In this document: piece after piece, positions 696 through 21,010 of the stretch
Position numbering within the stretch: the first letter of the stretch is position 1
How the letters are laid out: each line of letters begins with the position of its first letter
Origin: Candidatus Nomurabacteria bacterium
GTDB lineage: Bacteria > Patescibacteriota > Patescibacteriia > HK-STAS-PATE-3
Assembly: GCA_023898465.1 (NCBI GenBank)
Contig: CP060223.1
Span: 544,001 to 608,000, forward strand
Reading direction: 5' to 3'
Length of the DNA: 64,000 bases
Notes under the pieces: model-generated
The model's input: the letters and a program-made list of their open reading frames with translations, nothing else
What the model was told of the DNA's origin: nothing
The model's database searches: none
Position numbers and translations under genes: made by a program

Positions 696-2465
696 TTATG
701 TAAATTTGATAACCTGCCCAGGTTGAAGAGACTTACCTGATTGCGTCTGTGGCTGACTATGTTTCTCTTGTGCCTGAACAGACTTTGACTGCTCAGCTTG
801 CTTCGGAGTATTTTTGGCTGGCTGACTCTTTTCCTGAGGTTGCTTCTTCTTAGGCTTCGCTGTGAATTGCACAGGACCTTTACTCAGCGCCTCGTGTAAG
901 CTAATTTCTTTTGGTGGCTCAGGAGCTACTTCACGCAACTGCTCAGGCTCAGGTGCCGTTTGTGTAAAATTCGGTCGATCGTTTCTTCCCTGCTCTCGCT
1001 CATTGCGTGGACGGGAGCTGTTTTGATTACCTTGAGGATTTGGTTGACGATTTCGGTCATTCCCGCCTGATCGTTGTCGAGATCCGCCGCCTTGATTTTG
1101 ACGCGGTCCACTTCCCCCTCGACGATCATTTCCACCCCTATTACCGCCGCTACGATTTCCGCCACCCTGGGAACCCTGTCCGAGGAAGATTTCATCAACT
1201 CCAGTCCATCGGCGGATTTTATCTTCTACAATCTCTCGCTTCTTAGCATAGCGCTCACGTGACACCTCAATCACTTTTTGCCCATTACCGGTTGGACCGC
1301 TCACTGGCTCCAGAGTTGTAGCGGAAAAAGGCTCAGAAGCTACTCCATCAATCATTAAGCGGAGATAAATATCGTACTTGGTCAGGTTTACTAAATCAGT
1401 CTCAGTGAAGGTGGGATCAAACTCTTTAGCCAAAAACTCTGCATCAGCGGCACCAACACGGAAACACACGATCGATCCGACGTTGCCAAAAACAGCCGCG
1501 CGAACTTGCTCATCTAACTGCTCAATATACTGGTGAGCCATGATAAGATTTAAGCGATACTTACGCGCCTCTGACAAAATGTTGGCAAAGCTCTCAGTGG
1601 CAAAGTTTTGAAATTCGTCAACATAGAGGAAAAAATCTTTACGATCTTTTTCCGCAATGTCTACGCGACTCATGGCCGCCAACTGAATCTTGGTAATCAT
1701 CATACCACCCAGCAAAGCTGCATTATCTTCACCAATACGGCCTTTGGAAAGGTTCAGTAAGACAATCTTTTGCTCGTCCATCAATTGCCGCAAATCAAAA
1801 GTACTCTTCGGCTGGCCAATGATATTACGAATCATTGATGAGGAAAGAAATTGACCAATCTTGTTTTGGATAGGTGAAACAGCTTCGGTACGGAATTGGT
1901 TAGCGTATTGGCCGAATTCCTCATGCCAGAAAGCCTTCACAATAGGATCAGTTAGCTTCTCCACCACTTTTGATCGATAGTCGTTGTCGACGAGAATACG
2001 AGGAATACCCAAAAGTGTTGACCCAGGATACTCAATCAAGGAGAGAATACTATTGCGCAAAATGTATTCCAATCGAGGTCCCCATGAGTCGCTCCACATT
2101 TTTTTAAACACCGAAACAAGACCCGAGGCTACTAAGTGGCGGTGGGCAGGGTTTACACTTTCTAAGACGTTGAAGGCTACCGGATAATCTACATCAGCCG
2201 GATTAATATACACCACATCATTAATTCGATGTGAAGGAATGTAATCTAAAATCTTTTCCACAAAGTCACCGTGCGGATCAATCACAGCTAAGCCATGACC
2301 AGCTCGCACATCCTGGATCATCATATTTTCAAGCACCGTCGTCTTACCCATACCGGTCTTACCGATAAAGTACATGTGACGGCGTCGATCATCTATTCTA
2401 ATACCAAAGCGCCGCTGCTGATTGCGGAAATTCGTTTTAGCAAAAAAATTAATATCTTCACTCAT
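696..2465 (-). CDS. VirD4/TraG/TraD-like type IV coupling-protein ATPase (FtsK/HerA superfamily). It has no N-terminal TM segment and carries a long disordered RGG/KQ-rich C-terminal tail.
   Basis: Walker A is YFIGKTGMGKTT and Walker B/DEFQ is LYVDEFQNF. The block ...RKYRLNLIMAHQYIEQLDE...GNVGSIVCFRVG matches the T4CP C-terminal (TraM-recognition) region. The tail (about 190 aa) is GGNRGG/RQ-rich then KQ-rich. Confidence 0.7.
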   Translation of the reverse strand: MSEDINFFAKTNFRNQQRRFGIRIDDRRRHMYFIGKTGMGKTTVLENMMIQDVRAGHGLAVIDPHGDFVEKILDYIPSHRINDVVYINPADVDYPVAFNVLESVNPAHRHLVASGLVSVFKKMWSDSWGPRLEYILRNSILSLIEYPGSTLLGIPRILVDNDYRSKVVEKLTDPIVKAFWHEEFGQYANQFRTEAVSPIQNKIGQFLSSSMIRNIIGQPKSTFDLRQLMDEQKIVLLNLSKGRIGEDNAALLGGMMITKIQLAAMSRVDIAEKDRKDFFLYVDEFQNFATESFANILSEARKYRLNLIMAHQYIEQLDEQVRAAVFGNVGSIVCFRVGAADAEFLAKEFDPTFTETDLVNLTKYDIYLRLMIDGVASEPFSATTLEPVSGPTGNGQKVIEVSRERYAKKREIVEDKIRRWTGVDEIFLGQGSQGGGNRSGGNRGGNDRRGGSGPRQNQGGGSRQRSGGNDRNRQPNPQGNQNSSRPRNEREQGRNDRPNFTQTAPEPEQLREVAPEPPKEISLHEALSKGPVQFTAKPKKKQPQEKSQPAKNTPKQAEQSKSVQAQEKHSQPQTQSGKSLQPGQVIKFT

Positions 2466-13759: not shown

Positions 13760-14296
13760 CTATGGCCTTTGGTAATACCCTAGCAGCTGAGCCTGCGCCA
13801 ATATATGTCCTTGCATTACCTGCTCTAAATCATCCTTGGTAGCACCCTCCTCCAAATCTAAAAAGGTATCTAGAGCATATAAGGTAAAAATATACCGATG
13901 TGTTCCATTTGGTGGACAGGGGCCGCCCCATTGCAAACGCTGAAAATCATTCGTGCCTTGTCGGGCATTAGGCGGAACACTATTTTCTACTATCTCATTG
14001 GTATCTGGTGAAATATCCCAAACTATCCAATGATCCCAAGTGCTTCCCGGCGCATCAGGGTCATCCATCACTAGCGCAAAACTGACCGTGCCGTCCGGAG
14101 TTTCACTAATATGCAAAGGTGGATTCACATCATCTCCATCGCATGTATACTGTGAAGGAATTTTTTCACCTTCTTGAAAGGCTGTACTCGTAAGTCGCAT
14201 ATCTCCCTCCTTGCTAGCATCTTTCTTGCTAGCTATGAAATAAAGAAGTACTGCGCCGCAAAAAAGAGCAATAACTATTATGAGACGAATACGCAT
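13760..14296 (-). CDS. YbhB/YbcL-type PEBP (Raf-kinase-inhibitor-like) family protein, membrane anchored.
   Basis: CDGDDVNPPL...DPDAP...WDHW...GPCPPNGTHRYIFTLYALD signature. Confidence 0.8.
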   Translation of the reverse strand: MRIRLIIVIALFCGAVLLYFIASKKDASKEGDMRLTSTAFQEGEKIPSQYTCDGDDVNPPLHISETPDGTVSFALVMDDPDAPGSTWDHWIVWDISPDTNEIVENSVPPNARQGTNDFQRLQWGGPCPPNGTHRYIFTLYALDTFLDLEEGATKDDLEQVMQGHILAQAQLLGYYQRP

Positions 14297-14405: not shown

Positions 14406-14609
14406 ATGGAAAAGGTATTGAATAAAGTGGCTGAGTACCGGCAGAAAAATGAAGAGACCCAAGAGGAACTTGCGGCAGCTGTTGGCGTCACCCGCCAAAC
14501 GGTTATTGCTATTGAGCGAGGTAACTACACCCCTTCGGTTCGGCTTGCGTTAAAAATCGCCCAGCATTACAGTAAAAAGACTGATGATATTTTTTCACTC
14601 GACGAATAA
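14406..14609 (+). CDS. XRE-family (Cro/CI-type) HTH transcriptional regulator.
   Basis: QEELAAAVGVTRQTVIAIERGNYTPSVRLALKIAQ is a canonical XRE HTH. Confidence 0.8.
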   Translation: MEKVLNKVAEYRQKNEETQEELAAAVGVTRQTVIAIERGNYTPSVRLALKIAQHYSKKTDDIFSLDE

Positions 14610-14612
14610 CGT

Positions 14613-14966
14613 ATGAATACGCGCGCCACGCTTATCCTCGCCATAATCATTATTTTACTGAGTCTAGGCCTGCTTAATCCTTTTGATTGGTGGATGCCGA
14701 GTACCCTAGAAATGTCTTTCATCGTTATTTTAGCGCTGATCGGTTTTGCTTATGCTGCTTTTTTCTGGAAAGAGCGTCCGCGAGATGAGCGAGAAGAACA
14801 TGTACAACGAAAAGCCGGACGCAGCGCCTTCTTAGCTGGCATCCTCATCGGTATTACAGGCATCATTGTACAAGGCCTGCAACATGCCTTAGATGCTTGG
14901 CTCATTGCCACCGTAGCCGTTATGTTGCTAGCAAAGATTATTGCAACACTCCAGCAGGAAAAATAA
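14613..14966 (+). CDS. Small membrane protein partner of the XRE regulator (DUF2178-like arrangement).
   Basis: 3-4 predicted TM helices. 3-nt gap after the HTH gene. Confidence 0.5.
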   Translation: MNTRATLILAIIIILLSLGLLNPFDWWMPSTLEMSFIVILALIGFAYAAFFWKERPRDEREEHVQRKAGRSAFLAGILIGITGIIVQGLQHALDAWLIATVAVMLLAKIIATLQQEK

Positions 14967-15050
14967 TCAGCTTATAGCATAATTCGTCCAATAGCACCCA
15001 ACATGCTTGCGTGCCGAACCCCCGCACCATGTTAGATGCGGGGAAAGGCA

Positions 15051-15091
15051 TGTAAAGTCGACTTGACATATAAAAACTTGCCGTTTACACT
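15051..15091 (+). promoter_or_regulatory. Promoter TTGACA-N17-TACACT, overlapped by the 18-bp palindrome TGTAAAGTCGACTTGACA (second copy of the XRE operator).
   Basis: Read directly. The block is 22/25 identical to 14351-14376. Confidence 0.5.
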
Positions 15092-15122
15092 AAGGGCAAT
15101 TACTTTTAAACCCGGAGATCCC

Positions 15123-15758
15123 ATGCTTAACATCAAAGATCAACGAGGCCTCAGCGGTCTAACCATTGCAGCGATAATCACCATTATTGCAGTTGCTTTG
15201 GGGTTAATTATTTATTTTACCAGCACAAATTCAAGCAACAGCAACGAAAACGAATCCATGATGCAAGATGAAAATACAAACGAAGCGATGATGGATGACC
15301 ACATGGATGACAATACAAATGAGGCCATGGTGGACGACGAAGAACACATGATGGAAGACGACACAAACACCAATAGCGACGCCATGATGGAGGATGACGA
15401 GCATGCAATGGAAAAAGATGGCAGCGCAAACACTAACTCGGTTAGCGCCGCTCCTGGTCAATACATTGATTACACGCCAGCTGCTTTTGCTAGCGCCAGC
15501 GATGAAAAGCGTGTGCTTTTTTTTCACGCCACCTGGTGTCCAACCTGCAAAGCTGCGAACGAAGCATTTACATCGCGGCTTGATGAGATCCCTTCAGGAG
15601 TTGTCATTTTAAAAACTGATTACGATTCCCAAACTGCCTTAAAAAATAAGTACGACATCACCTACCAGCACACTTTTGTACAGGTCGATGCCGATGGAAA
15701 TGAATTAGCAAAATGGAATGGTGGAGACGTTGACCTCTTAGCAAGGAAGCTGCAATAA
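15123..15758 (+). CDS. Membrane-anchored thioredoxin-family protein (WCPTC) with a Met/Asp/Glu/His-rich low-complexity linker.
   Basis: TM helix LTIAAIITIIAVALGLIIYF. Linker NEAMMDDHMDDNTNEAMVDDEEHMMEDD... C-terminal thioredoxin fold RVLFFHATWCPTCKAA. Confidence 0.7.
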   Translation: MLNIKDQRGLSGLTIAAIITIIAVALGLIIYFTSTNSSNSNENESMMQDENTNEAMMDDHMDDNTNEAMVDDEEHMMEDDTNTNSDAMMEDDEHAMEKDGSANTNSVSAAPGQYIDYTPAAFASASDEKRVLFFHATWCPTCKAANEAFTSRLDEIPSGVVILKTDYDSQTALKNKYDITYQHTFVQVDADGNELAKWNGGDVDLLARKLQ

Positions 15759-15762
15759 ATCC

Positions 15763-17496
15763 ATGCTATTACTTATTGGATTTGCCTTTCTCGCCGGTGT
15801 CGTCACCGTCCTCTCACCCTGTATTCTGCCAATACTACCGGTTATCCTGACTGGATCAGTGACTGGCAGTAAACGGAGGCCGCTCGGAATTGTTCTCGGC
15901 TTTATTTTAAGCTTCAGCTTTTTTACACTTTTCCTGGCCACCATTGTGCAGTCTACTGGAATCTCAGCCGGGGCTTTACGGACCTTCTCAATTGTCGTGC
16001 TCTTCGGCTTTGGGGTTAGCCTCCTCTTCCCTCGAGTCCAAGTCTGGCTAGAGCAACTTTTCTCGCGCCTTTCTAGCCGAGCACCCCGTCAAGCAAATCG
16101 AACTGGCTTTTGGGGCGGCATCCTCATCGGACTTAGTATTGGCTTGCTATGGACGCCTTGTGTCGGCCCAATCTTGGCATCGGTTATTTCACTCGCGCTC
16201 ACCGGCTCAGTAAGCAGCGGCGCCGCATTTATCACCCTAGCCTATGCTATCGGAACAGCTATTCCAATGCTGGCGATCATGTATGGCGGACGTCATCTCT
16301 TGCAGCGAGTGCCTTGGCTAATGCAAAACACCGGTCGCATCCAAAAGGCTTTTGGTGTGTTCATGATTATTACGGCAATTGGTATTTCAGCCAACCTTGA
16401 TAGGAAATTTCAAACCTTTATTCTCGATACCTTCCCAAACTATGGCATTGGCTTAACTAAGATTGAGGACAACGAGCAAGTCCAGCAAGAATTAGATAAG
16501 CTTAATGCTGAGCCAAATGAAGATATCCAAGGCAAGCCTATGAACGAAGCAACCCAGAGCAAAAAAGAAGACACGCCCGCGCCTGAGCTCATCCCAGGCG
16601 GTGAATGGTTTAATTCCGATCCACTAAGCTTAAAAGAGCTGCGTGGTAAAGTGGTACTGGTTGATTTTTGGACCTACAGTTGCATTAATTGCCAGCGCAC
16701 CCTCCCCTACCTCAGGGACTGGTGGGAGAAATACAAGGATGATGGACTGGTCATCATTGGCGTACACACACCTGAATTTGAATTTGAAAAAGATCCTGAT
16801 AACGTGGCAAAAGCATTGCGGGATTACGAGATTGATTATCCGGTCATGCAGGATAACAACTTCGCTACCTGGTCAGCATATAAAAATCGCTATTGGCCCA
16901 GGAAGTATTTAGTCGATCAAAATGGTAACATCATCTATGATCACATTGGCGAAGGTGGCTATGAAGAAACTGAACGACAAATCCAAGAGGCATTACAAAA
17001 CGCAGGCAAGTCAGTCAATGCAAGTATTAGCACCGAAACAACGGATACTGATTTCACCCAAATTGCTACACCGGAGCTTTATTTTGGCTCAGCTCGAAAT
17101 CAATACCTCGGCAACGGTACTCAATTTCAAACTGGATCCCAAGAGCTCACTCTGCCGGATGATATGAAAAAAAATATGCTCTACCTAAGCGGAACTTGGA
17201 ACTTCCAGGACGAGTACGCAACAAATTCAAATACGGCAAGTATTACACTTCCCTATCAAGCGAAGAATGTCTACATGGTGGCAGCAGCGGATAACGCTGT
17301 GCAGCTGCAACTCAAGTTGGATGGAGAAAACCTTAGCTCAACTCAAACAGGTGCAGATGTCGATAAAAACGGTCAGGTTACCATACAAGCCCACACCCTT
17401 TATCATCTCATTAGCACAGAAAACTACGGCAGCCATACACTGACGATTGAAATCCCAGCCGCTGGACTAGAGGCTTACACTTTTACCTTCGGGTAA
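15763..17496 (+). CDS. CcdA/DsbD-type transmembrane electron-transfer domain fused to a TlpA/ResA-like thioredoxin domain, plus an extra C-terminal domain of about 170 aa.
   Basis: N-terminal LSPCILPILPV (CcdA Cys motif) and 6 TM helices. VVLVDFWTYSCINCQRTLPYL is a TlpA-type CxxC. 4-nt gap from the upstream thioredoxin gene. Confidence 0.8.
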   Translation: MLLLIGFAFLAGVVTVLSPCILPILPVILTGSVTGSKRRPLGIVLGFILSFSFFTLFLATIVQSTGISAGALRTFSIVVLFGFGVSLLFPRVQVWLEQLFSRLSSRAPRQANRTGFWGGILIGLSIGLLWTPCVGPILASVISLALTGSVSSGAAFITLAYAIGTAIPMLAIMYGGRHLLQRVPWLMQNTGRIQKAFGVFMIITAIGISANLDRKFQTFILDTFPNYGIGLTKIEDNEQVQQELDKLNAEPNEDIQGKPMNEATQSKKEDTPAPELIPGGEWFNSDPLSLKELRGKVVLVDFWTYSCINCQRTLPYLRDWWEKYKDDGLVIIGVHTPEFEFEKDPDNVAKALRDYEIDYPVMQDNNFATWSAYKNRYWPRKYLVDQNGNIIYDHIGEGGYEETERQIQEALQNAGKSVNASISTETTDTDFTQIATPELYFGSARNQYLGNGTQFQTGSQELTLPDDMKKNMLYLSGTWNFQDEYATNSNTASITLPYQAKNVYMVAAADNAVQLQLKLDGENLSSTQTGADVDKNGQVTIQAHTLYHLISTENYGSHTLTIEIPAAGLEAYTFTFG

Positions 17497-17501
17497 AGTA
17501 G

Positions 17502-17948
17502 CTATACGGTTGTTTGCATTTTGCGCATTTCGTTACGGCGCAGAAGCAGGCTCACTACAAAAATTCCGAGGTAGAAAAAGAATCCATACACACAAGCTGG
17601 GAGGGATTCTGGCTTCTCCGCAGCCAACCACAATTCGTATACCGAGAGACTCAGTGCAAAAAGCGTGCCCACCAAACCTAACCAAACTAAAGCATTGGCG
17701 ATACCTTTTGAACTTCCCTTCACCCAATAGATTGCGGATAAAATTCCAATAGCCACATACATGGCAAATCCATATACGCAGTTTGGTAAGCCAACAATAT
17801 ATACAGGGTTCACTCCGCAGCTAATAATGGTTTGACCACATCCGTTCGCAAACAAATTTACATAGCTTAAATAGCCTGACAAGAGACCGCCCAACACCAC
17901 GAAAAGCAAAATCAAAGTTAAGGCCAACGAAGATTTCATATGTTTCAA
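17502..17948 (-). CDS. 4-TM membrane protein with four conserved Cys (C-x7-C loop pair and two LP[NA]CVYGF repeats). Possible thiol-disulfide oxidoreductase.
   Basis: NGCGQTIISCG. GLPNCVYGFAMY and SLPACVYGFFFY form an internal repeat. No CxxC, so not a canonical DsbB or VKOR. Confidence 0.5.
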   Translation of the reverse strand: MKHMKSSLALTLILLFVVLGGLLSGYLSYVNLFANGCGQTIISCGVNPVYIVGLPNCVYGFAMYVAIGILSAIYWVKGSSKGIANALVWLGLVGTLFALSLSVYELWLAAEKPESLPACVYGFFFYLGIFVVSLLLRRNEMRKMQTTV

Positions 17949-18035: not shown

Positions 18036-18284
18036 CTATTGCTGAGGCATCGAAGGCATGCTCGATGAACCTGACTTGCCTTTTGCTGGCAAGGTAACAA
18101 GCACGTACAACGCTGAGAGACCAACGAGGACGTAGACGATCTTGGAAACCACTGAGAGATCGCCAAAAATAGTTGCTACCAAATCAAATTCAAAAGCACC
18201 GTATAGACCCCAGTTAAGGCCACCAATGACGAGAAGGATCATTGCGATCCAATCCATTACATTCATTTTCATAACGTTACTCAC
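18036..18284 (-). CDS. DUF378 family small membrane protein.
   Basis: WIAMILLVIGGLNWGLYGAFEFDLV...IVYVLVGLSALYVL matches the DUF378 pattern. Confidence 0.7.
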   Translation of the reverse strand: MSNVMKMNVMDWIAMILLVIGGLNWGLYGAFEFDLVATIFGDLSVVSKIVYVLVGLSALYVLVTLPAKGKSGSSSMPSMPQQ

Positions 18285-18363
18285 CCCCTTTCTTGTTATG
18301 CTGTGAATAAGTATAGCACTGAATGAAAAATAGTGCTATATATTGGGATTTATTACTAGAATA

Positions 18364-18394
18364 CAAAAACCCCGCTTTCACGGGGCTTTTGTTT
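18364..18394 (-). terminator. Rho-independent terminator (bidirectional type) after the DUF1761 gene.
   Basis: AAAAACCCCGCTTTCACGGGGCTTTTGTTT: 5-6 bp GC stem with A-run and T-run flanks. Confidence 0.6.
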
Positions 18395-18407
18395 AGTGCA
18401 ATACAAA

Positions 18408-18836
18408 TTACTGCCACACGGCTAAAATAGCCCCCATAACAAGGAGCTGAACCAGGTGATAGCCAGTGGTAATGGCAAAGTGGCCAAACTTCTTAAACTC
18501 AAATAAGTAGTTTGTACCAACAGTGGCAAAGACAAATCCTAGCCACATCCAAAAACCGGTAAGCAACCCATCTACCAATGTGGTAACTTTTACATACCCA
18601 ATGACATGCGCAAGTACATAAGCTACAACTAAAGAAAGAATAAAGGCAAAGAACATTGATCTTGCCGGATTCCCCTCTTTAATTTGCTCCTCGGTTTTTC
18701 CTACAAAGCCCATCCAGGCCTTACCAAAAACGCTTCGTGCGTACCAAATACTACCAACCAACATGGATGAGGCACCAGCAACTAAAACCGCCCAATAATT
18801 AATAGCTACATCGAACACATAATCACCCCCTTTCAA
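18408..18836 (-). CDS. DUF1761 family membrane protein.
   Basis: INYWAVLVAGASSMLVGSIWYARSVFGKAWMG... is the typical DUF1761 N-terminus. 4 TM helices. Confidence 0.65.
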   Translation of the reverse strand: MKGGDYVFDVAINYWAVLVAGASSMLVGSIWYARSVFGKAWMGFVGKTEEQIKEGNPARSMFFAFILSLVVAYVLAHVIGYVKVTTLVDGLLTGFWMWLGFVFATVGTNYLFEFKKFGHFAITTGYHLVQLLVMGAILAVWQ

Positions 18837-18865
18837 AACTTGTGCATAGTATATACGATTGGGGT

Positions 18866-19996
18866 TTAGGCGTCATCTGCCGTTTGGGTAGTGCAGGGAC
18901 AAGCAACCTTATCGAGTTGTAAGCGCTCGAGGATAGGCTCCGCTTCTTTATCTGTAGCCGGACGAGGCCTCGCATAGTCATCAATAATAACCGGTACGAA
19001 GTCTAAACCAGTGACACCCTCCTGGCTATCGATTTCGATATCAGCCAGCATCCCCTCCCTGGTTGGTTGTGACCACATTTGATCAAAAATAAAATTACCT
19101 AGACTGTAGAGAATATACTTCCCCTTATACGCTTCGATATTTTGCACCACATGAGGATGATGACCAATCACTAGCTCTGCTCCAGCGTCAATTGCTGCAT
19201 GAGCGAAATCAATCTGCTGCTGTGTTGGCGTGTAAGTATATTCAATACCAGAGTGCATCGAAACAAACACATAGTCAGCCATCTCTTGCGCTCGCTGCAC
19301 AGCGGACTGCATATTTGCTATGTCCATAAACGCAGTCCCAGGCTGCGTGTCGCTTGCGCCATAGCTGGCTGGAACTAAGGAGCTCCAGGTGTACGCAACG
19401 ATGGCGATGGTAATTCCATTACGCGTCAGCAAGGCCGGCTGCTCCGCCTGATCTAAATCTTCGCCTGCCCCGGTCGAGGCGATCCCGGCTGCGTCCAGAT
19501 AGCTTATCGTATCTAACAATCCATCATTTCCAAAGTTAGGACTGTGATTATTTGCCAAGGAAACTGCGGAAATATTTGCGTCAGCCATTAGCTCTTCAAC
19601 CCCAGGGTTAGCCCGGAAGCTTAACTCTTCTGCTTCAATATGCCGACCGGCTGTAATAGGACACTCCAGGTTTGCGAACACTGCATCGGCCTGCTGTAAA
19701 ATATCTTTCATGCCAGAGAAGGGATAGTCATTTCCCTTTTTCGCCATCTTATCTGCCACAGTACGAGAAAGCATAATATCCCCCACAGCATAGAGATGCA
19801 TGCTTTGTGACGATTCTTCAGGCACCTCACTCAAGTCTGTTGAGGGCTCATAGACAAGCTGATCTTGTAGTGAAGCGTATACCCTCGGTGCTCGCCCGGC
19901 AATCTTATTTGCCACCTGAGCAATACAAAACCAACCTGCGCCTAAGACCAGGATGATAACAACTACGGGATAAAAGTAACGGGCAGACATACCCAC
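18866..19996 (-). CDS. CapA/PgsA-family metallophosphoesterase (poly-gamma-glutamate synthesis-like).
   Basis: AVGDIMLSR...ADAVFANLECPIT...SLANNHSPNFGNDGLLDTISYLDAAGIASTGAG is the CapA signature. N-terminal TM helix. Confidence 0.8.
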   Translation of the reverse strand: MGMSARYFYPVVVIILVLGAGWFCIAQVANKIAGRAPRVYASLQDQLVYEPSTDLSEVPEESSQSMHLYAVGDIMLSRTVADKMAKKGNDYPFSGMKDILQQADAVFANLECPITAGRHIEAEELSFRANPGVEELMADANISAVSLANNHSPNFGNDGLLDTISYLDAAGIASTGAGEDLDQAEQPALLTRNGITIAIVAYTWSSLVPASYGASDTQPGTAFMDIANMQSAVQRAQEMADYVFVSMHSGIEYTYTPTQQQIDFAHAAIDAGAELVIGHHPHVVQNIEAYKGKYILYSLGNFIFDQMWSQPTREGMLADIEIDSQEGVTGLDFVPVIIDDYARPRPATDKEAEPILERLQLDKVACPCTTQTADDA

Positions 19997-20071: not shown

Positions 20072-20494
20072 TCAACGAGGATTGACCGGCTGCTTGGGCG
20101 AAGACTTGGGCTTCGAAGAAGGCTTTTTGTCCACTCCATTGGACCGAGGCCTTCTCGACTTTCCGGTCCTTGTGGACGGCAGTCTGAAAGCTTCTTTCAC
20201 TCGCCCCGCCGCCAATTCCAGCTTGCTGGGCTTGGCAGACGAGCTATTCACCTCGGGTGCTTGCTTGGCGTCAGCGAAGTTCTGTGCGACCTCGCCATGA
20301 GCTTGAGCTGAAACACCGGATGCCCGACGATTCTCATCGCGCACCCGATCGTAGATCTCTTCCCGGTGGACAGCGACATTCTTCGGCGCATCAACGCCAA
20401 TCTTGACCTGTCCACCCTTCACATCCAGGATGATGATCTTGACCCGATCACCTACCCGGATATTCTCCCCCAACTTCCTTGTCAAAATGAGCAT
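20072..20494 (-). CDS. csrA: CsrA-like carbon storage regulator with a basic K/S/P-rich C-terminal extension of about 75 aa. GC-rich patch.
   Basis: [48 protein letters not shown] is near-canonical CsrA. The ORF's 25 upstream residues are an extension artefact. The tail is PKQPVNPR-rich. Confidence 0.7.
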
Positions 20495-20665
20495 GACTCT
20501 TGTACTCCATTGCTTGGCTGTGTGGCCATCCTTGGTTTCTCGGGCGCCAAAAACGCCCTCCTGTTGCAAACGGAGATACTACGCGAGTCTCTCTATTTTG
20601 TCAACCATGCACCGAACCTGGTACGGAGTGAGTCCCACACCAAACTTGGTGTGGGGTCAACCACT

Positions 20666-21010
20666 CTAGAGACGGTCTATCTTAACGGCCAGAATAAAAT
20701 CGTTTTCATGCAAACCGCGAATGGCATGAGTAAACAAGGTGAAATCGACTTTATTATAGTGAACGCAAAAGTCAGGGTGATGTCCTTCGGACTCGGCTAG
20801 CCCTTCAACCTTACGTAGGAATGCCATAGCAGCTCGGAAGTCGTCAAAAGTGAAACGCTTTTGCAGTGTCTTCATTTCCACACCATTCTTCTCTATTACT
20901 TTCACTTCCCAGTTAGAAAGCTGCGGGAGAAGCTGAGCTATCTCTTCATCAGTTGCCGGCGGTATACCGCCCTCGCATGGAACGCATTTCTTCGCTAGGA
21001 GCTCACTCAT
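20666..21010 (-). CDS. Pterin-4a-carbinolamine dehydratase (PCD/DCoH).
   Basis: E-x-E-GHHPD-x(5)-Y-x(9)-H-x(3)-GL signature: SEGHHPDFCVHYNKVDFTLFTHAIRGL. Confidence 0.85.
   Translation of the reverse strand: MSELLAKKCVPCEGGIPPATDEEIAQLLPQLSNWEVKVIEKNGVEMKTLQKRFTFDDFRAAMAFLRKVEGLAESEGHHPDFCVHYNKVDFTLFTHAIRGLHENDFILAVKIDRL

Follow-up and report, generated by a model that had tools for sequence, protein, structure and literature searches.

A CxxC-less, internally duplicated VKOR-family membrane protein encoded next to a DipZ-type reductase in a Candidatus Nomurabacteria genome

The stretch of DNA studied here (the window; 64,000 nucleotides, contig CP060223.1, positions 544,001 to 608,000) originates from a metagenome-assembled genome (MAG) of Candidatus Nomurabacteria. 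In it, a small gene encoding a protein of 148 amino acids with four transmembrane (TM) helices lies end to end with a gene encoding a DipZ-type protein of 577 amino acids. By sequence and predicted fold, the small protein is related to the vitamin K epoxide reductase (VKOR) superfamily, but it is not VKOR proper. VKOR and DsbB are defined by a CxxC motif next to a quinone. On balance, we lean towards regarding the small protein as a VKOR-like thiol oxidase, whose redox pair would be split across two helices. The CxxC-less branch to which it belongs, called the variant in the following, is an undescribed member of the VKOR superfamily, whereas the DipZ part of the locus is already known.

Both open reading frames (ORFs) are present with the coordinates and the convergent layout given by an earlier first-pass annotation of the window: the 577-residue ORF spans 15763..17496 on the plus strand and the 148-residue ORF 17502..17948 on the minus strand, leaving 5 bases between the stop codons. 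The NCBI gene model of the small protein, which is annotated there as 'hypothetical protein' (P0001), starts three codons later, with the ATG at 17939 and a length of 145 amino acids.

The first-pass annotation had seen no likeness of the small protein to either VKOR or DsbB, and this has to be revised. A database search with the small protein returned 36 homologues, nearly all carrying precomputed VKOR matches and several titled 'vitamin K epoxide reductase family protein', and individual Pfam scans detected VKOR in 36/36 (E<=1e-3, best E 1.5e-11). The window protein itself reaches 22.2 bits against Pfam VKOR (PF07884), which is under the cut-off of 27.5, and its match ends at profile position 108 of 134, so that the TM4 end of the profile lies outside the match; relatives above the cut-off include P0050 (35.7 bits) and P0084 (28.2 bits). 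When a family profile was compared with the PDB, Synechococcus VKOR chains were the only matches, with TM1, the region of the loop cysteines and G-x-P-x-A-x-x-G aligned. The four-helix topology of the first-pass annotation is borne out by an AlphaFold2 model built on the family alignment (pLDDT 88.5, pTM 0.81), which places helices at residues 6-33, 56-77, 81-108 and 118-146. In a Foldseek comparison of this model with the PDB, the nine best matches are all VKOR structures, with TM-scores of 0.62-0.69. Furthermore, lysine and arginine residues number 8 in the predicted cytoplasmic segments versus 1 in the outer ones, and by this positive-inside distribution all four cysteines are placed on the extracytoplasmic face.

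Additional support comes from a fusion. In the relative P0050 (286 amino acids), the variant is joined by a fifth TM helix to a thioredoxin domain that carries the motif YWCPHC, and the whole protein aligns end to end with the Synechococcus VKOR-thioredoxin protein 3KP9 (E 5.5e-19). In P0050 and in P0188 the thioredoxin domain lies on the outer side of the fifth TM helix. The 90%-identity cluster of P0050 holds four member sequences, which were found on several contigs.

An identity as DsbB was rejected. The Pfam DsbB (PF02600) match of the small protein reaches 20.6 bits versus a cut-off of 22.1 and is restricted to TM2-TM4, the protein has no CxxC, DsbB is detected in 5 of the 36 homologues, and the 50 Foldseek matches listed include no DsbB structure. 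The small protein had no match among the NCBIfam models, nor in Pfam to DoxX, MauE or DUF families at E values up to 1, and the Pfam scan revealed no sequence similarity to DsbD families.

Canonical VKOR has four redox cysteines, a loop pair and the CxxC. The small protein also contains exactly four cysteines, C37, C44, C57 and C119, and no CxxC. C37 and C44 (codons 17838..17840 and 17817..17819, minus strand) form a loop pair, which had been described as C-x7-C and in fact is C-x6-C. The duplicated motif LP[NA]CVYGF reported earlier is exact: LPNCVYGF occupies residues 54-61 (17766..17789, with C57 at 17778..17780) and LPACVYGF residues 116-123 (17580..17603, with C119 at 17592..17594), both on the minus strand.

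Whether the cysteines are conserved in orthologs, a point raised in the first-pass annotation, was addressed by an exhaustive profile search in 1.84 billion cluster representatives, yielding 601 matches at E<=1e-3 and 136 at E<=1e-10; the counts given in the following refer to the 136 full-length members among the matches listed, aligned to the family model. The four cysteines are invariant in the 36 homologues mentioned above and close to invariant in the larger set, where C57 is retained in 136, C119 in 135, C37 in 131 and C44 in 123 relatives. P55 (133), G60 (134), G122 (135) and an acidic residue, Glu or Asp, at position 105 (129) are similarly kept, and in no member of this set does a CxxC occur within 8 residues of C119. 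The near-invariant cysteines thus belong to a repeated P-x-C-x-x-G motif opening TM2 and TM4, to which the loop cysteines are added. The full-size members differ in how the loop cysteines are distributed: 108 have two in loop 1 and none in loop 3, as in the window, 25 have two in each and three have one in each. All sub-types possess both cysteines of the P-x-C motifs and at least two loop cysteines per four-helix unit.

This conservation bears on the view that the variant is a catalytically dead, VKOR-derived scaffold with purely structural disulfides, its position next to DipZ being a coincidence. The loss of the defining CxxC would be explained in this way, and in some genomes an adjacent canonical VKOR could carry the activity. 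However, the cysteines of the P-x-C motifs and the acid at the end of TM3 hardly vary, even between deep lineages of bacteria and archaea, the fusion to thioredoxin is retained, and the variant mostly occurs without an adjacent canonical VKOR. We therefore regard a dead scaffold as improbable.

The alignments point to how the variant may be related to the canonical active site. Two independent ones, an hhalign comparison with human VKORC1 (the sequence used is identical to PDB 6WV3 over residues 3-155) and that of P0050 with Synechococcus VKOR, agree in matching C119 to the first CxxC cysteine (C132 in human VKORC1, C130 in the Synechococcus protein), G122 to the second one, and C57 to the Ala/Ser within P-x-A-x-x-G of TM2. 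A shift by 3 residues would instead place C119 on the second cysteine, and the first CxxC position would then be a leucine. Such a shift is suggested by the bacterial VKORs, since these have C-P-x-C, as in the WCPIC of the canonical VKOR in locus L011 and in M. tuberculosis VKOR, where Pro140 lies inside the CxxC. As to which cysteine has been kept, the alignments appear to favour the first, and the P-x-C motif of the bacterial C-P-x-C VKORs appears to favour the second.

A further hallmark of the variant is its internal duplication. A profile-profile comparison of the N-terminal with the C-terminal halves of 113 full-size members gave a probability of 99.6% (E 1.3e-23). In the window protein, the first repeat unit of two TM helices comprises approximately residues 8-78 (17715..17927, minus strand) with TM1, the cysteine loop, LPNCVYGF and TM2, and the second approximately residues 82-141 (17526..17705, minus strand) with TM3 including E105, a short cysteine-free loop, LPACVYGF and TM4.

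The two-helix unit also exists alone. A scan of one genome per species, using family-specific search patterns which recover close relatives only, yielded 76 loci, and about 40 of these encode only an ORF of 67-115 amino acids (mostly 74-100), which covers approximately positions 1-77 of the model, in other words TM1, the cysteine loop, P-x-C-x-x-G and TM2. No second half was detected near these ORFs in any frame. The half-size proteins match the N-terminal half with an E value of 2e-31 and the C-terminal half with 2e-25, and for 8 of the 9 scanned, Pfam VKOR (positions 2-80) is the sole family match at E values up to 0.001. In these relatives, two copies would have to pair as a homodimer to build the equivalent redox centre. 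Furthermore, the half-protein profile matches both halves of the canonical VKOR in L011 (TM3, E 4e-7; TM1-TM2, E 6e-5), a hint at the sequence level that VKOR itself may derive from the duplication of such a hairpin. It was also observed that TM1 bears an acid (Glu or Asp) at its outer end in 35 of 37 half-size proteins. In the fused proteins the TM1 copy at position 31 is mostly Lys, Asn or Arg (96/136), and the TM3 copy is the acidic position 105 described above. Judged from these alignments, one acid is kept per bundle and the other copy has often turned basic.

According to the record titles, 45 of the 76 loci belong to Patescibacteria of the Candidate Phyla Radiation (CPR), including Parcubacteria, Kerfeld-, Dojka-, Sacchari-, Roizman-, Davies-, Woese- and Collierbacteria as well as Microgenomatus. 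Another 16 are archaeal, mostly of DPANN type (Micrarchaeota, Nanoarchaeota, Woesearchaeota, Iainarchaeum, Norongarragalinales) and otherwise unclassified, three come from unclassified bacteria, and 12 from third-party MAGs labelled Gammaproteobacteria (L021, L023, L024, L026, L028, L029, L033, L042, L043, L063, L071 and L074). Several of the latter share neighbouring gene families with Patescibacteria loci, and hence their labels look unreliable. As far as these sequence matches go, the variant family is widespread in ultra-small bacteria and archaea.

If the small protein acts as a thiol oxidase, the loop pair C37/C44 would take electrons from an exported thioredoxin-like protein, as the loop pair of VKOR does. 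The electrons would then pass to the pair formed by C57 in the first turn of TM2 and C119 in the first turn of TM4, with E105 nearby. This pair would replace the CxxC, one of whose cysteines would be kept on TM4, the other being located at the repeat-equivalent position of TM2. A candidate for the final acceptor would be a quinone, possibly derived from the host, or something else. The first-pass annotation had suggested, from the position of the gene, that the protein is the oxidant side or a novel partner of the pathway; given the likeness to VKOR, the oxidant side is a sensible guess.

Several points weigh against this assignment. The CxxC that defines VKOR is absent, and if the four helices are packed in sequential order, TM2 and TM4 should occupy diagonal positions, so that a direct disulfide would be geometrically demanding. 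An argument based on a conserved pocket had to be dropped: residues matching N80 and Y139 of human VKOR can be aligned in the window protein, but these pocket residues of animal VKOR are not conserved in the family, the position of N80 being A, T, N or S and that of Y139 being Y or F in the 136 relatives. In addition, canonical VKOR genes lie immediately beside the variant in L011 (1473..1898), L088 (6842..7267) and L042 (4785..5312). These neighbours have a C-x7-C or C-x9-C loop and a WCPIC or CLYC active site, and those of L011 and L088 overlap with the end of the gene for the variant-thioredoxin fusion; mere redundancy of the variant with VKOR is therefore improbable. Genes for thioredoxin- or DsbA-like proteins are rarely adjacent to the variant. 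Apart from the fusion, almost no such partner was found by jackhmmer and a CxxC scan, a combination of low sensitivity which missed a thioredoxin gene of L088. For the window variant no dedicated partner was identified, the nearby WCPTC thioredoxin belonging to the DipZ operon. A quinone as acceptor is questionable, since the general inference for Parcubacteria and other CPR bacteria is that they do not respire (PMC5220378). Finally, copper-export genes are neighbours in 8 of the 76 loci and allow for a role related to metals.

This last point leads to the proposal that the variant is no redox enzyme at all and instead a membrane protein that binds or transfers copper or another soft metal through thiolates, three cysteines per two-helix unit being presented at the outer membrane face. 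The gene for a copper-type P-type ATPase lies within 6 kb of the variant in these eight loci, which belong to CPR bacteria and archaea, often accompanied by genes for cupredoxin and HMA proteins, and the family includes small, cysteine-bearing forms with two TM helices. On the other hand, the sole relationship found by sequence or fold is to VKOR, thiol-disulfide exchange is indicated by the fused, CxxC-bearing thioredoxin domain of VKOR type, the family has no conserved His or Met ligands, and most loci lack metal genes. Such a metal-handling protein is accordingly considered unlikely.

The genomic surroundings also bear on the partnership with DipZ that the first-pass annotation had deduced from the position of the small gene. 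Here, a conserved adjacency was rejected: among the loci of variant relatives examined, nine of them by gene tables, none outside the window yielded a match to the TlpA or PF17991 part of DipZ, hence no DipZ fusion, and the variant was found near none of three metagenomic DipZ relatives. In L007, which encodes a 51%-identical relative, the variant is located directly beside a PBP-family gene (731..1183). In the window, the PBP/RKIP-family gene (13760..14296, minus strand) and the variant are separated by a block of 3.1 kb (14406..17496) encoding a helix-turn-helix (HTH) regulator, a membrane protein, a thioredoxin and DipZ, and it looks as if this block was either inserted in the window or lost in L007. 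The pairing with DipZ is thus local, and in our preferred reading two separate envelope thiol-redox components happen to abut in the window genome.

A looser link to thiol-redox and copper genes remains plausible. A membrane protein of the DsbD superfamily is encoded within 6 kb of the variant in approximately 13-15 of the 76 species-level loci, in addition to the window. These neighbours comprise stand-alone CcdA, DsbD_2-Cupredoxin fusions, an SfLAP-family protein, and thioredoxin- or glutaredoxin-like proteins linked to CcdA by jackhmmer. In L034 (3250..7204), L053 (4272..8806) and L068 (5956..10927), the variant, a DsbD_2-Cupredoxin protein and a copper ATPase follow each other on one strand; in such clusters the DsbD_2-Cupredoxin protein sometimes has an N-terminal HMA domain. 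In L030 (5474..12448) the variant is situated between an ArsR-YHS and a CopY/BlaI-type (BlaI-BlaR-type) regulator within a cluster that contains CcdA and a copper ATPase. In L088 the order is variant-thioredoxin fusion, canonical VKOR, a 732-amino-acid DsbD_TM protein, HMA, copper ATPase, cupredoxin and MauE.

These arrangements would be in keeping with a scheme, close to the idea of the first-pass annotation, in which the variant works together with conduits of the DsbD superfamily (CcdA, DipZ or DsbD_2-cupredoxin) in one envelope system for thiols and copper stress. It might, for example, exchange electrons with the conduit instead of a quinone, or maintain the redox state of copper-handling cysteine proteins. 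If a genome of about 1 Mb carries a few such genes, we would expect to meet one within 12 kb in no more than a few percent of cases. This rate is our own estimate and not a measurement, and the observed counts are raised by related genomes. At least approximately 80% of the loci lack such a neighbour, and four of the positive loci come from closely syntenic genomes. Furthermore, the TlpA and PF17991 parts of DipZ gave no match at the examined loci beyond the window, the two genes in the window are convergent and hence not co-transcribed, and the comparison with L007 suggests that the thioredoxin-DipZ block was inserted between the variant and the PBP gene. Taken together, a joint system with the conduits is a minor possibility, ranked above the metal-binding protein and the dead scaffold, and the broader connection of the variant to envelope thiol-redox and copper loci is suggestive only.

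The larger protein next to the variant is, judged by its domain matches, an ordinary DipZ-type disulfide reductase with a three-part architecture that is already known, so that its annotation is routine. The fusion of a CcdA-type conduit to a TlpA/ResA-type thioredoxin, as recognized in the first-pass annotation, is confirmed by Pfam: the CcdA/DsbD transmembrane domain comprises residues 3-208 (15769..16386; DsbD_TM, E 3e-13), and the TlpA/ResA-like redoxin domain residues 287-406 (16621..16980; AhpC-TSA, Redoxin and Thioredoxin_8). The C-terminal domain, for which the same annotation saw no function, is PF17991 ('Thioredoxin_10', 'Thioredoxin like C-terminal domain'), covering profile positions 1-142 of 142 at residues 436-577 (17068..17496; E 6.2e-35), and it has been solved in M. 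tuberculosis DipZ (PDB 2HYX and 5CYY, 'Protein DipZ'), which matches residues 272-577 of the 577-residue ORF with an E value of 1.2e-64, the C-terminal part of these chains being aligned with the PF17991 domain. The solved CcdA structure 5VKV matches residues 3-222 (E 5e-13). The membrane cysteines of the CcdA domain are C20 in SPCILP and C133 in TPCVGP, and the active site C307-I-N-C310 (codons 16681..16692) lies in a stretch, SCINCQR, that is identical to M. tuberculosis DipZ in the alignment; all these features are on the plus strand. The resemblance to M. tuberculosis DipZ (Rv2874) hence extends over the three-part architecture, the SCINCQR active site and the full-length PF17991 domain; the difference is the organism, as the window ORF comes from a MAG of Patescibacteria and not from an actinobacterium. 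Two metagenomic DipZ relatives (50% identity; L089, 1645..3461, and L090, 416..2232) have the protein split between neighbouring genes, one for a CcdA of 235 amino acids and one for a TlpA-PF17991 protein of 374 amino acids with its own membrane anchor. In L090 the split genes adjoin ORFs resembling tryptophan-biosynthesis genes, an assignment made by eye from the sequence, and because of these neighbours the donor organism is probably not a Patescibacterium.

Upstream of DipZ, a membrane-anchored thioredoxin of 240 amino acids is encoded at 15036..15758 on the plus strand (Pfam Thioredoxin, E 1.4e-8; PDB thioredoxins, E 1e-8). It consists of one TM segment (approximately residues 36-66), a linker and a thioredoxin domain with W-C168-P-T-C171. 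Its gene ends 4 bases before the start of DipZ; given this short gap, co-transcription is probable, and DipZ is likely to have this thioredoxin as a client. The linker (approximately residues 64-135) is long and acidic, with many Met, His, Asp and Asn residues (EAMMDDHMDD, EEHMMEDD, DAMMEDDEHAME), and a search for DNA tandem repeats in it found none. In composition it looks like the Met/His-rich stretches that bind copper, a likeness that would agree with the presence of copper genes near relatives of the small protein.

By analogy with CcdA, DsbD and DipZ, the thioredoxin-DipZ operon (15036..17496) would be a conventional reducing module. Cytoplasmic electrons would cross the membrane via the C20/C133 pair of the CcdA domain; their destinations would be the C307/C310 site of the fused TlpA-like domain and, probably, the anchored WCPTC thioredoxin of the operon. 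DipZ would thus transfer reducing equivalents across the membrane. For M. tuberculosis, CcdA/DipZ has been described as a conduit for reductant that counteracts oxidation driven by VKOR or DsbA (PMC3781833).

The remaining neighbours in the window are given for completeness. An XRE-type HTH_3 regulator of 67 amino acids, followed after 4 bases by a membrane protein of 117 amino acids (14406..14966, plus strand), lies directly upstream of the thioredoxin-DipZ pair in the same direction and may represent a local regulator. Upstream of the small gene, on the same strand and with short gaps, a PGA_cap/CapA-like protein and two membrane proteins, one of DUF1761 and one of DUF378, are encoded (18036..19996, minus strand). 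They may be co-transcribed with the variant, and they are not among its recurrent neighbours at other loci. Further away on the minus strand, judged by ORF translation alone, one ORF (20072..20569) has a CsrA-like core with a long, basic tail rich in Lys, Pro and Ser, and another (20666..21010) resembles pterin-4a-carbinolamine dehydratase.

Among known systems, the bacterial VKORs (Synechococcus VKOR-thioredoxin, 3KP9 and 4NV2; M. tuberculosis Rv2968c) are the closest to the variant. Both have a four-helix bundle with the termini inside, a cysteine pair in the first outer loop, G-x-P-x-x-x-x-G opening TM2, one cysteine at the start of TM4 and, occasionally, a WCPHC-bearing thioredoxin domain fused through a fifth TM helix. 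In contrast to these VKORs, the variant has no CxxC, with a glycine at the second position of the motif (or, under the 3-residue shift, a leucine at the first) and an invariant cysteine in place of the alanine of P-x-A-x-x-G, its halves are clearly homologous repeats, and half-size versions with two TM helices exist. E. coli DsbB, which reoxidises a thioredoxin-fold partner, is likewise a small protein with four TM helices and four outward-facing redox cysteines, but its CxxC is located in the first outer loop and its second cysteine pair in the second loop. The CcdA/DsbD domain shares with the variant two homologous repeats, each with a Pro-adjacent cysteine at a helix start, as well as an occurrence in envelope thiol and copper loci; its repeats, however, are inverted and the cysteines meet in the middle of the membrane, whereas the repeats of the variant are parallel and both cysteines face outward.

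MauE, a small helical membrane protein, has been reported to replace DsbB while using a CxC and not a CxxC, with Glu and Lys conserved close to where the quinone is predicted to bind (bioRxiv 10.64898/2026.03.05.709764), so that catalysts without CxxC have a precedent. The variant is comparable in its near-invariant Glu at the end of TM3 and the frequent Lys or Arg at the repeat-equivalent end of TM1, and differs from MauE in the arrangement of the cysteines and in fold family.

For CPR bacteria, VKOR family proteins beside MdbA-like oxidoreductases have been described in 88 of 750 genomes, where differences in the active site were not discussed (Méheust et al., PMC6744442), and the VKOR phylogeny of Bevans et al. 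2015 dropped sequences without the conserved residues (PMC4555120). In the literature consulted, whose coverage is incomplete, no description of a CxxC-less, duplicated or half-size VKOR family was found.

A more far-reaching interpretation is that the variant is a pseudo-symmetric and possibly ancestral type of VKOR, in which a two-helix hairpin with loop cysteines and a P-x-C-x-x-G helix cap acts either as a homodimer, in the half-size genes, or as a tandem fusion, as in the window, and the redox pair is contributed by two helices; the acceptor might be non-standard or derived from the host, and the activity might be coupled to DsbD-family conduits and copper export. We put this forward tentatively and regard it as clearly less probable than the split-pair thiol oxidase itself. 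In this form, the protein would serve as a catalyst of envelope disulfides in Patescibacteria and DPANN archaea that are poor in quinones and depend on hosts.

CPR bacteria have been reported to encode pili as well as MdbA-like thiol-disulfide oxidoreductases that may fold pilins (PMC6744442). The small gene described here is a candidate for what oxidizes their exported proteins. If the assignment is true, this large and deeply conserved, CxxC-less branch would show that disulfides can be generated by a centre assembled from different helices or, in the half-size form, from different subunits, and it would provide a concrete model for the origin of the VKOR fold.

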